Source of the DNA: a virus
Taxonomy: Duplodnaviria > Heunggongvirae > Uroviricota > Caudoviricetes
IMG/VR virus record: IMGVR_UViG_2675903324_000005
DNA: 37,769 nt
Reading direction: 5' to 3' (one strand)
The position numbers are program-made. This document shows, in pieces, positions 33,001 through 36,000 of this stretch. How positions within the stretch are numbered: the stretch's first letter is position 1; each line of letters begins with the position of its first letter.

Positions 33001-36000
33001 GCATACCGCTGAAGGTGTGGCGGCGGGTGACCTGACGGCATCCCGTGCTGCCGGTAATGTTGTCGGTGGTATCCTGGGGGCATTCAGCCCGATCGGCAGT
33101 GAGACGTCGGAAACACTGTCCGGGGCATTGCTGAAAAATGCAGCGCCGACCATTCTGCGTCCGTTTGCGAACCTTGCCATGAATGAAAACTTCATGGGGG
33201 CGCAGATTTACCAGGAGAACATACCGTTTGGTACACCAAAACCTGACAGCCAGCTGGGAATACGTTCAACGCCAGAAGCGTACAAGGCGTTTGCATCCTG
33301 GCTGAATGCGTTCTCTGGTGGCAGTCAGTACCGTCCCGGCGCGGTGGATATCACACCGGAATCGCTGATATTCTGGATTGACTATATCTCCGGAGGGACA
33401 GGGCGCTTCATTTCCAAAACCACGGATGCGGCGGTGAAATCGCTGAATGGTATTGATATACCGGAACAGCAGGTGCCCTTCCTGGGGAAAATTTCGGGTG
33501 AGGTGATGCCGTATGCAGACCAGCAGAAGATGTACGACCGGATGACAGAGGTTGCGCAGTATCACGCAGAGCTGAAGAGTCTGACCGGTGCAGAAAGAAC
33601 GGCGTTCATTGACGAGAACAACGGAAAATTGTCGATGAACGGGCTTATGCAGGATACCCGGAAGAGACTGAAGGATTTGCGCAAACAGCGCGATGCCATT
33701 TATGCCGACAGTTCTCTCAGTCTGGCGCAGCAGGCGGCGATGGTGAAATCGGTAGAGCGGGATATGAAGGTTGCCGTGGATCGCTTTAACCGCGAGTACA
33801 ACAAAAAAGTGGGAGTGGAGTAACAGAACATGCCCCGTACGGAAGTGCGGGGCTGATTAAGAAATAAACACTCATTGACCTGTAATAACTGGAGCTATTA
33901 ACATATAGTCAGAAAGAGCATTTCATGTGATACAGAGAGCCGATTTATGTTTAATGAAGAAAAAGTTGCGCAAATGGCAGCGTATTTGCTGAAAAAGCAT
34001 GGCGGATCTATGCGTTTCATTAAGCTGAAGCAGCAACGGTAATGGCGAATAGCATTTATGAGCAAAATAATCTTGATATGTTATTAGGCGATCTGATGTA
34101 ACCGGGATGATGTTCACCCCTGCCATTTGACATCCTCCACGCCCTGAAGGACGGGGTTTTTACAGCGCACCGGATAAGATTCGGTGTTTTGTTGAAAATA
34201 CTGTGATAACAAACAGAAAACCCGTCAGTAAGACGGGCTTAGCAAGCTGGGACGGTTACTTTAATAATTTCAGTGCCTTTACATCCACTTCAACACTGCT
34301 CAGGTCTTTATCAATTTCACCCTCAATTCTTACTTTGTCTTTCGGAGAAACATTCTGCCCGGCCCATACGCTGTCATCAATATCCGTGACAATTGTCCCG
34401 CTATTGTCACGAAACTCATAACGTTCATTACCCACTTTTTTAACGATGCTCCCTTCAAGGATAACCCATGCATCATCCTTCAGTTCTTTTGCCTGCGCTA
34501 CTGTTGAACGCTCTGCTTCAGGCCCTTGGAAACCGCCCTGCTGTGCAAAAACGCCAAAAGACACACCGGAAATAAGTGCTGCAATCAATACCTTTTTCAT
34601 TCATAGTCCTCTTTCAGAGATGAACATTCAAACAGCATTTTCAGTATGGTAAAGCGCGGGTGCGTTGAGGATGCCTGACACATCAGAGGTGGCGGGAGAT
34701 TACTCCCTCGCCAGGTCTCTTACTTCTCAGATTCGTAGTCTACGAAGACAGCGACCTCCGTCTGACCGGTTCGGATTCCTACCTCGCAGAGGTCTTTCCT
34801 CGTTACCAGTGCCGTCACAACAACGGTAATACAGATGACGATCAGGGCGATTAACATCGCCTTTTGCTGCATCATAGACTGCTTCTCCTTGCCTTTCGGC
34901 ACGTAAGAGGCTAACCTACATGTGTCTAGTATGAAATTGGCCTCAGATTAATGTTAAGCGTCCTGCAAGACGCGAAATGTTAACTGGGGCTTTTCTATGT
35001 CTGCCTTACGGCGGCATGCCCGAGGCAGACAGCCTCAAGCACCCGCAGCAATTCTACTTAACTCTTCTTTCCCCGCAAACCGTTTTTATCCCCAGCGGCA
35101 AATCGAATACACCATCAGCGCTACCGCCATTGCAATACCAACATTTGAGAAGGCTTCAGGCTAGCTCATTGGCGTACCTCCTTCGGCGGTTCTGGCAGCG
35201 GCATCCAGAATAAGGCGCTCCCTAACCACGATAAAGTGCCGTCGCTCAACTCCACGTATTCCCCTTGTACCTGTCCTGCCATATACTCGCCGTGCTTTGA
35301 ATAAATTAAAATCCAATCATCTTGAGCGGGGATTCGTGTACTACAGCTTATCCAACGAGCCGGAGTTACCGGAGAGTTGCTCGACAGCTCGTTCAACTTG
35401 TAAGTTTGGCTTACAGGTTCGGCACCATGAAGCATGGAGGCGCGGCAGGAGTTCCAGCCTCTCACCTCTGCAATAGCGGCAACAGCATCGACCGCGTACA
35501 TTTTAAGAGGGTTAGGCATTGGTTTTTCTTCAGGTACTACTGGCGCTGGAGGGGCAGTGTAAAGCTGGTGCGTTCCATCAGGTAGCGAGTGACCCACATA
35601 CTCACCGAACCCGTCAATACACATGCCCCCATCTTCAACAATGCATTACGCTACAGGCTCTGCTTCCAGCGATGCCAGTGCAATCCGTGCCAGTTCTTCC
35701 GCTTCTTCTGCTGGCAGTACAACGTTGCTACCAGGTCCGTATGTTTCGCGCCACTGCTTGATTGTCAGCAGTCGCTCTTTGGTTATAGTGGTCATTTGTT
35801 AGTCCTTAAACTGCCAGTTGCAATTGCATTTCAAAGCGGTCGCGTTGTTCACAATACGCAAGAGAACTAGGGCTATTGTGTGCCTCAATCCGTTCTACCA
35901 TTAATGCTGCGCGTGTCTCTTTACTTGCAGGTGCATAAGCCCCAGACCAGGCTTTATCAATACCGATGTTTCGAGCGACGTTCGTACTATCTGCGCTGGC

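Follow-up and report, generated by a model that had tools for sequence, protein, structure and literature searches.

A hokW-mokW-sokW type I toxin-antitoxin allele with an AUA mok initiator codon in an IMG/VR caudovirus

The window (the whole stretch of 37,769 nt analysed here, IMG/VR virus record IMGVR_UViG_2675903324_000005, Caudoviricetes) encodes on its minus strand, at 34720..34875, a 51-aa peptide (MMQQKAMLIALIVICITVVVTALVTRKDLCEVGIRTGQTEVAVFVDYESEK) followed by a stop codon. The profile search identified it as a member of the Hok/Gef family (Pfam PF01848, HOK_GEF; E-value ~1e-21 to 7e-22, 76.5-77.2 bits, cut-off 22), a family of ~50-aa peptides with an N-terminal transmembrane helix and a conserved C-terminal domain (…RK.LCE…), to which it was assigned by its score above the Pfam gathering threshold. 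The peptide is 82% identical to HokC/Gef of E. coli K-12 and 92% (47/51) to HokW of phage 933W, in agreement with the Gef-like character expected of this ORF, and the expected Shine-Dalgarno (SD) sequence AAGGAG was located at 34890-34885, 9 nt ahead of the ATG. The DNA of the locus is 100% identical to stretches of four E. coli chromosomes, where RefSeq labels it "Hok/Gef family protein".

The leader upstream of the gene (35044-34870, mRNA strand) matches the full model (1-157) of the Rfam family RF01794 with 111.5 bits (E-value 1e-24, gathering score 59), which is far beyond chance; it is homologous to this family in both sequence and structure, and the covariance-model search proposed by the original prediction as a check of its hok/sok assignment was thereby answered positively. 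The RF01794 match starts at 35044, and the full-length hokW-type mRNA is predicted to comprise 387 nt (34658..35044, minus strand). Its minimum free energy (MFE) fold of -155.4 kcal/mol (z-score -5.67) has the 5' and 3' ends paired, and an alignment with 78 other distinct relatives revealed a mean column identity of 95%. A putative hok promoter (35051..35079, minus strand) was read directly from the sequence, with a -10 box TAGAAT at 35056-35051, a weak -35 box TTTGCG at 35079-35074 and a predicted +1 at G 35044; the stretch is conserved with respect to 933W, and its geometry equals that upstream of K-12 hokC (TATAAT-6 nt-GGGTGC). A simple sigma-70 consensus scan of the locus called neither this promoter nor that of sok (see below). 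The locus is longer than the interval originally assigned to it (34650-35000): it reaches to ~35079, and both the promoter and the 44 nt at the 5' end of the mRNA fall outside that interval.

The genomic context is that of the hokW-sokW orthologue group of Sepvirinae Stx phages, i.e. DUF551 gene, hokW, YgiW/BOF gene and, on the opposite strand, a large LPD38 gene. The BOF/YgiW-type OB-fold gene that was said to adjoin the locus occupies 34256..34600 on the minus strand (Pfam PF04076, E-value 5e-33), outside the module, and is a homologue of L0136 of 933W. The DUF551 neighbour is pseudogenised. In 933W (AF125520) and in Sakai prophage 5 (Sp5, VT2-Sakai) the module sits in the same place, between the DUF551 gene and the YgiW/BOF gene and downstream of a gene for a protein of 2.8 kaa, and 933W is annotated with mokW, hokW, sokW and the YgiW-like L0136 in the layout found here. 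The DNA identity to 933W is 93% over 498 aligned bases; the sok -35 and -10 boxes, the tac and fbi elements, the SD sequences and the hairpins are identical, whereas the Hok peptides differ by K2M, L16I, I19V and R33G, and ~7 substitutions affect the segment of the Sok 5' tail and mok initiation (GTCTAGTATGAAATTGG vs GTTCAGCATGGATTGAG), so that the region determining Sok specificity represents a different allele from that of 933W. The locus is, with practical certainty, an allele of the type I toxin-antitoxin module hokW-mokW-sokW found in Shiga-toxin phages of the 933W/Sp5 type. The same prophage is carried, for example, by E. coli 2013C-3033 and JNEC-KY202, and a search for hokW-type loci gave 10,780 places in 5,426 E. 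coli genomes. This type is present in 78 phage records, is annotated in 933W and was functionally characterised in 2021; the locus is therefore of low interest as such, and matters little apart from its correct annotation.

Apart from the mok initiator (see below), all of the leader elements typical of hok mRNAs were found. The tac element (GGGUGCUUGAGG, 35033..35044, minus strand) is predicted to pair with the fbi element (CCUCAACGCACCC, 34658..34670, minus strand; invariant in the 79 relatives save for one unpaired position) through 12 pairs that occur in both the MFE and the consensus structure and are invariant in all 79 sequences, a pairing that rests on prediction and conservation rather than on covariation. 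The 5' leader hairpin (34998..35031, minus strand; consensus helix columns 14-48) exhibits one A-U pair replaced on both sides by G-C in 15 sequences. The ucb-like box GCCCCAG (34984..34990, minus strand) pairs, when the full-length RNA is folded, with the stretch around the mok SD (consensus columns 56-62 with 100-106, practically without variation), while the hok SD AAGGAG is sequestered by the anti-SD CCUCUU upstream of it in a hairpin at 34873..34919 (minus strand), whose consensus helix (columns 128-171) is invariant and whose local fold has an energy of -14.2 kcal/mol (z-score only -1.7). In the fold of a 3'-shortened mRNA the 5' end re-pairs with the ucb-like box; this is suggestive only, as the MFE structure has a low frequency (0.0003) and the centroid disagrees with it. 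The stem-loop CCTGGCGAGGGAG...CTCCCGCC, proposed earlier as the 3' fold-back element, does exist as a hairpin of the 3'-UTR (34690..34713, minus strand; -13.3 kcal/mol, z-score -3.07; consensus helix 337-358, in which 5 sequences have one pair changed on both sides), but it closes on itself and was rejected in that role, the 5' end pairing instead with the fbi element at 34670-34658, further downstream. In the consensus structure of the 79 sequences only 3 of 105 pairs exhibit both-side changes; with relatives that are 95% identical, covariation offers little support, and the structural claims therefore rest on conservation and energy.

A Sok-like antisense RNA was correctly predicted for the plus strand, but the region suggested for it (34880..34960) is too far to the left. 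The sok promoter is placed at 34889..34917 (plus strand; -35 TTGCCT at 34889-34894, 17-nt spacer, -10 TAACCT at 34912-34917), with the same sequence as in 933W/Sp5, and the predicted RNA of ~72 nt spans 34924..34995, with a 9-nt single-stranded 5' tail, a long hairpin and a U-rich tail. Its fold (-28.1 kcal/mol, z-score -4.18) leaves the 5' tail unpaired and includes a hairpin resembling a terminator, and its position is homologous to those of the annotated sokW of 933W and SokC of K-12 (GTTCAGCAT... vs GTCTAGTAT...). Judged from sequence and predicted fold, it is encoded in cis, has a promoter of its own and overlaps the site of mok initiation, and both the unpaired 5' tail and the terminator hairpin are present. 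The sigma-70 scan reported instead, on the mRNA strand, TTAACA/CATACT and, on the plus strand (34851-34880), TTAACA/TAGACT; we set both aside as promoters because mutagenesis in Sp5, where replacement of TAGGTTA (the complement of the sok -10) made hokW toxic (PMC8621323, primers YO-421/422), identifies TAACCT as the -10 box of sok. An intrinsic-terminator scan of the locus found nothing, the Sok hairpin with its CUUUUCU tail falling below the 5-T rule of that scan. Nowhere do the otherwise 95%-identical loci vary nearly as much as in the patch comprising the Sok 5' tail and the mok initiation region, a pattern consistent with selection for antisense specificity between the many copies of hok that one E. 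coli cell contains.

The element in which the locus departs from its relatives is mok. The mok reading frame (34720..34932, minus strand) is in frame with hok, its extension ...LDTCRLASYVPKGKEKQSMM is present, the nearest in-frame stop upstream being the TAA at 34949-34947, and a GAGG SD (34941..34944, minus strand; conserved in 78/79 relatives) lies 8 nt ahead of the start position. However, the initiator at 34932-34930 is ATA, in place of the ATG found in 76 of the 79 distinct relatives, in 933W and in K-12 mokC. Among these relatives the ATA is confined to a small clade comprising the window, phiSTEC1589-Stx1c and L129, and ahead of the hok ATG the frame offers a single canonical start, GTG 34902. 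The Mok-like extension described earlier is therefore real as an open frame with its SD, but the peptide as then proposed has as its first residue a Leu that no start codon precedes. Likewise, the hok-type leader blocks are present (tac-fbi, SDs, ucb-like box and Sok elements) except for the mok initiator. A leader disrupted in an alignment of homologues had been named as the observation that would speak against the original prediction; the alignment revealed one such disruption, mok ATG to ATA, with the other elements intact.

The lost mok ATG and the pseudogenised DUF551 neighbour are the only points in favour of regarding the locus as a chance ORF or a degraded remnant devoid of RNA-level organisation. 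Against this stand the Rfam and Pfam matches (E-values 1e-24 and 1e-21), the fold of the whole mRNA (z-score -5.67), the consensus structure and the fact that all elements other than the mok ATG match those of functional relatives identically; we consider this explanation refuted, its probability being negligible.

The mechanism has been demonstrated in relatives and may be extended to the window locus from its conserved anatomy. A weak promoter would give rise to the stable 387-nt hok mRNA, in which tac would pair with fbi, the ucb-like box would hold the mok SD and the anti-SD would hold the hok SD, and these pairings would keep the full-length RNA silent. Trimming of the 3' end would remove fbi and open the mok ribosome site, and ribosomes on mok would unfold the hok SD and allow the synthesis of Hok, a 51-aa inner-membrane peptide. 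The short-lived Sok, transcribed from the opposite strand (34924-34995), would pair with the mok initiation region, blocking it and triggering cleavage. For the hokW orthologue of Sp5, toxicity has been demonstrated, with Sok acting as the antitoxin from its own promoter and RNase III and Hfq contributing, and HokW has been found at the inner membrane (PMC8621323). After mitomycin C treatment Sok was lost and HokW was made, and a deletion mutant released half as many phages (PMC8621323). In Sp5 the loss of Sok upon prophage induction is followed by the appearance of HokW, ~1 hour ahead of the endolysin, and HokW roughly doubles phage release. Toxicity of the window Hok and its neutralisation by Sok are carried over solely from the Sp5 orthologue, and would apply here by analogy.

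The same logic (tac/fbi, ucb, coupling of mok to hok, and control by antisense Sok) operates in hok/sok (parB) of plasmid R1 (PMC9841398), whose Hok is 44% identical to HokW (PMC8621323). The R1 system differs in that it is plasmid-borne and serves post-segregational killing, and its mok starts with AUG. The hokC (gef)-mokC-sokC system of K-12 shares with the window locus an in-frame mok with its start position 19 codons ahead of hok, a Sok that begins at the homologous position and the 5' leader GGGTGCTTGAGGCTGTCTG. It differs in being chromosomal rather than phage-borne, with an IS186 inserted beside hokC, and its Sok-target hairpin is ~16-18 nt shorter than that of the window, which has an extra internal stem.

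In R1 hok/sok the G118A mutation, i.e. the same change of the mok AUG to AUA, acts as a loss-of-function suppressor of toxicity (PMC9841398), and the window allele is therefore probably attenuated. Translation of Hok from it is, on balance, expected to be strongly reduced or lost, with the expression of Sok intact; for hokW, a dependence on mok is suggested by analogy with R1. In our opinion the best overall explanation, with a probability of about 0.6, is a hokW-mokW-sokW allele with an AUA mok initiator and a Hok output that is reduced or lost. As the change is that of R1, it would be unsafe to regard the copy as an active toxin.

On the other hand, the strong SD AAGGAG with its modestly stable hairpin (z-score -1.7) allows for some mok-independent initiation, and the AUA itself or the in-frame GTG 34902 might support initiation at a low level. 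If hok's own SD at its 9-nt spacing, in a hairpin of no exceptional stability, or AUA/GUG initiation of mok were sufficient, the ATA would be neutral and the module fully functional, aiding lysis upon induction as in Sp5. The intact hok ORF, both promoters, tac/fbi and Sok are consistent with this, as is the persistence of the ATA allele in at least 3 distinct sequence variants and ~10 complete E. coli genomes, all with the hok ORF intact, which also means that the allele is not an obviously decaying pseudogene. Yet 76/79 distinct relatives keep the mok ATG in spite of its position in the stretch that varies most across the locus, an invariant consensus helix engages the hok SD, and the identical change abolished function in R1, so that we regard full function as rather unlikely.

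With its mok AUG-to-AUA change, the window allele offers a ready natural test of hokW's need for mok. We put forward as doubtful the idea that a lineage of Stx-type prophages retains AUA-mok hokW-sokW either with mok-independent translation of hokW, unlike in R1, or with a silenced toxin and Sok kept. In the latter case the locus would be an antitoxin-only module, and could serve as a shield against hokW brought in by a superinfecting phage with the same Sok-target allele.

The main role of the locus could also be other than help in lysis, namely post-segregational stabilisation of the prophage or abortive-infection defence against other phages. The annotation of 933W reads "prophage maintenance", and R1 hok/sok lowers the plating of T4 according to work cited in PMC8621323. 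However, the sole direct test of hokW gave a lysis/release phenotype and no effect on the growth of lysogens (PMC8621323), hok genes show no enrichment near defence systems, and with a crippled mok any killing role of the window locus would be weak. We therefore consider such a role highly improbable.

Another hok-like locus adjoins lom at 21887-22174 (Pfam HOK_GEF, E-value 4e-8; Rfam sok, 37.9 bits, below the gathering score). It resembles the hokW locus in its HOK_GEF peptide, in a leader recognisably of the same family and in the AGGTTA/TAACCT motif at the presumed sok -10, whereas the two peptides share only 31% identity, the Sok tails are unrelated and an in-frame mok extension is lacking. 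Comparison with this locus, referred to earlier by position 22034, had been suggested with a view to cross-regulation, in which the antisense RNA of either locus would act on the other. Perfect non-cognate complementarity between the loci extends over 6-7 nt at most, and the 5'-tail duplex energy is ~-16 kcal/mol for non-cognate pairs vs -33 to -35 kcal/mol for cognate ones; on these grounds we rejected cross-regulation, which is unlikely. The presence of two hok-family loci in the window, which the original prediction had singled out as notable, is real, but it is the normal layout: 933W itself carries both, and the second type is present in 198 phage records.

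The hok-type toxin-antitoxin locus at 34658-35044 (minus strand) encodes a 51-aa peptide (MMQQKAMLIALIVICITVVVTALVTRKDLCEVGIRTGQTEVAVFVDYESEK; ORF 34875..34720, minus strand), which the profile search assigned to Pfam HOK_GEF with 77 bits (cut-off 22) and whose ATG is preceded, 9 nt upstream, by AAGGAG. The peptide is identical to HokW of Stx phage 933W at 47 of 51 positions and to HokC/Gef of E. coli K-12 at 41 of 50. The covariance-model check for hok/sok was positive: the Rfam scan of the whole window returned a single above-threshold match, in which the full RF01794 ('sok') model aligns with minus-strand 35044-34870 (111.5 bits, gathering score 59; E 1e-24). 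Since this match is to the hok-mRNA strand and stops at the hok AUG, the model describes the hok leader, containing the Sok complement. RF01794, though named 'sok antitoxin', matches the sense strand (hok mRNA from +1 to the hok AUG, 34870-35044) and leaves the antisense strand encoding Sok unmatched, a point to bear in mind when assigning strands with this model. The next gene downstream (34600..34256) has a Pfam match to BOF (YgiW-type). The Pfam, Rfam and BOF matches together uphold the original prediction of a Hok/Gef locus next to a BOF gene as a real observation, far beyond chance.

The megablast comparison of 34600-35100 with phage records matched 78 of them, mostly Stx-converting phages. 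The homologous stretch of 933W (AF125520) is 93% identical and annotated with mokW, hokW ('host killer protein') and the sokW antisense RNA; there the YgiW-like L0136 and then the large gene L0134 come after the locus, a layout shared by the window with its 2807-aa ORF at 25400-33823 and an upstream DUF551 gene. Over its first 25 kb, the window shares ~98% identity with O104:H4-type Stx2a phages. The 461-bp locus is found with 100% identity in four complete E. coli chromosomes (ORF annotated by PGAP as 'Hok/Gef family protein'), and 4707 of the 5426 complete E. coli genomes carry hok-like DNA of the hokW kind (median two places per genome). The 2807-aa ORF (plus strand), homologous to 933W L0134 and termed 'LPD38 domain-containing' in RefSeq, is intact in the window; E. 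coli 2013C-3033, which shares the window's hok locus at 100% identity, has a truncated LPD38 gene. The DUF551 gene (35166-35795, minus strand), immediately 5' of the hok promoter, is interrupted by an internal stop, leaving ORFs of 49 aa and 152 aa, and the identical DNA of 2013C-3033 is annotated as a pseudogene by RefSeq, which hints at some prophage decay.

The hokW-type locus is a known element, and the sole added finding is the mutated start codon of mok, the leader frame in frame with hok, in the window allele. The frame is open 5' of hok as far as a TAA at 34949-34947, giving the Mok-like extension of the original prediction; the open frame and the SD GAGG are there, but the initiator is ATA, not ATG. 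In 933W, mokW starts in frame 19 codons 5' of hokW, at CC-ATG-CTGAAC, as does K-12 mokC; the homologous window codon (34932-34930) reads ATA, with the SD intact 8 nt 5' of it. GTG at 34902, which lacks a good SD, is the only other canonical in-frame start 5' of the hok ATG. We pulled 120 relatives from IMG/VR by a conserved 32-mer and, after adding loci found in phage and E. coli records, obtained 79 distinct full-length sequences, window included; the mok ATG is present in 76 of these 79 and in 120/120 IMG/VR relatives (unbiased scan), and a directed scan found the ATA version in five IMG/VR contigs. Three variants make up the ATA clade: that of the window (100% identical in four chromosomes), that of phiSTEC1589-Stx1c and that of L129. 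Estimated by identity band, the clade's frequency is roughly ten in 5426 complete genomes. The ATG lies in the most variable patch of the locus (mean 0.94 bits/column at 34929-34919 vs 0.136 overall; 34933-34939, near the mok start, also vary), so that selection appears to have kept it in the other relatives.

The deep mutational scan of hok/Sok from plasmid R1 recovered the mok start-codon substitutions T117C, T117G, G118T and G118A as toxicity suppressors, likewise stop codons 5' of the hok start, and its authors concluded that mok translation as far as the hok SD is required (PMC9841398). G118A is the AUG-to-AUA change seen in the window mok. In E. coli, AUA supports weak initiation only. 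By analogy with R1, we infer that the window allele should yield little Hok, with Sok still made; caveats to such attenuation are the strong SD of hokW, the modest stability (z -1.7) of the hairpin sequestering the hok SD, and the intact hok ORF in all three ATA variants.

No other segment of the 79 hokW-type loci, elsewhere 95% identical, varies nearly as much as 34919-34940 (minus strand), which holds mok codons 2-5, the spacer preceding the mok start, and the 5' tail and transcription start of Sok. This segment occurs in at least 8 allele types (MLNTC, MLYTR, MNGKS, MSHKC, MLDTC, MLCTC, MLHKR, MTCTC and others), with the embedded ATG staying fixed among the relatives. Judged from the alignment, this variability would fit diversified Sok-target specificity among many hok copies per cell.

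On the plus strand, the sok -35 (TTGCCT, 34889-34894) overlaps the hok SD and is followed, after a 17-nt spacer, by the -10 (TAACCT, 34912-34917); both hexamers are the same in 933W and Sakai prophage Sp5. By homology to sokW and SokC, Sok is predicted to start near 34924, in agreement with the annotated sokW of 933W (about 34924-34994) and with K-12 SokC (GTTCAGCAT... compared with GTCTAGTAT... in the window). The range 34880-34960 originally proposed for Sok takes in the sok promoter and reaches no further than the first half of the RNA. In the predicted fold of RNA 34924-35000 (-28.1 kcal/mol, z -4.18), the first 9 nt are left unpaired as a 5' tail, and a long hairpin precedes the terminal CUUUUCU. 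The Sp5 (VT2-Sakai) orthologue was studied by Takada et al. 2021 (PMC8621323): induced HokW is toxic, sokW with its own promoter blocks this toxicity, and a sok -10 mutation (TAGGTTA replaced on the mRNA strand, primers YO-421/422) restores it, with a partial contribution of RNase III and Hfq. Upon mitomycin C treatment sokW RNA disappears and hokW mRNA remains, HokW appears in the inner membrane ~1 hour ahead of endolysin in a RecA-dependent manner, and in the deletion mutant growth arrest comes later and phage release falls to half (PMC8621323).

The putative hok promoter -10 (TAGAAT, 35056-35051, minus strand), read from the sequence, lies 6 nt before G35044, a geometry as in K-12 hokC (TATAAT-6 nt-GGGTGC). 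The 387-nt hok RNA (35044-34658) has a predicted energy of -155.4 kcal/mol (z -5.67), equalled by 0 of 100 shuffles, and its 5' tac element GGGUGCUUGAGG (35044-35033) pairs in the predicted fold with the 3' fbi element CCUCAACGCACCC (34670-34658), as described for R1 (PMC9841398). The consensus structure of the 79 sequences retains this pairing (12 pairs, invariant in 79/79), together with a 5' hairpin with one A-U pair replaced by G-C in 15 sequences, a long hairpin pairing the ucb-like box GCCCCAG (34990-34984) with CUGAGGC, which includes the mok SD (34944-34941), a helix of CCUCUU with the hok SD, and a 3'-UTR hairpin (34713-34690, minus strand; -13.3 kcal/mol, z -3.1). The latter is the stem-loop originally likened to the fold-back element; it exists but closes on itself and is ruled out in that role, fbi being 34670-34658. 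Both-side changes affect only 3 of 105 consensus pairs because the relatives are 95% identical, and the predicted structures thus rest on energy and conservation. With the last 40 nt removed, the MFE structure pairs the 5' end to the GCCCC box, as expected from the R1 tac/ucb model, with weak ensemble support. In the hokW type the Sok-target hairpin contains an extra internal stem (GCGUC...GACGC, 34961-34976), which is missing from K-12 hokC and the Rfam consensus; the Rfam alignment shows it as an insertion of 16 nt.

A second, divergent hok-type locus (21887-22174, plus strand) encodes a 46-aa HOK_GEF peptide (E 4e-8) between a lom-like gene (21069-21803) and ORF 22231-22632; its leader scores 37.9 bits with Rfam sok, under the gathering score. 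Two hok loci in one window had been considered notable; since this second type is found in 198 phage records and also in 933W (between lom and L0129, 96% identity, identical ORF, unannotated in the GenBank record), the arrangement is instead what is normal for this phage type. Only about 3.5% of hok-bearing phages overall have two hok loci (bioRxiv 10.1101/2025.08.07.668861). Cross-regulation of the two window loci by each other's antisense RNA, originally put forward as a point to check, appears unlikely from sequence comparison: the peptides are 31% identical, perfect complementarity in non-cognate Sok/leader pairs reaches at most 6-7 nt, and non-cognate 5'-tail duplexes have energies of about -16 kcal/mol vs -33 to -35 for cognate ones. 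In some other phage records the second locus is named 'small toxic polypeptide' or 'MokW-like'.
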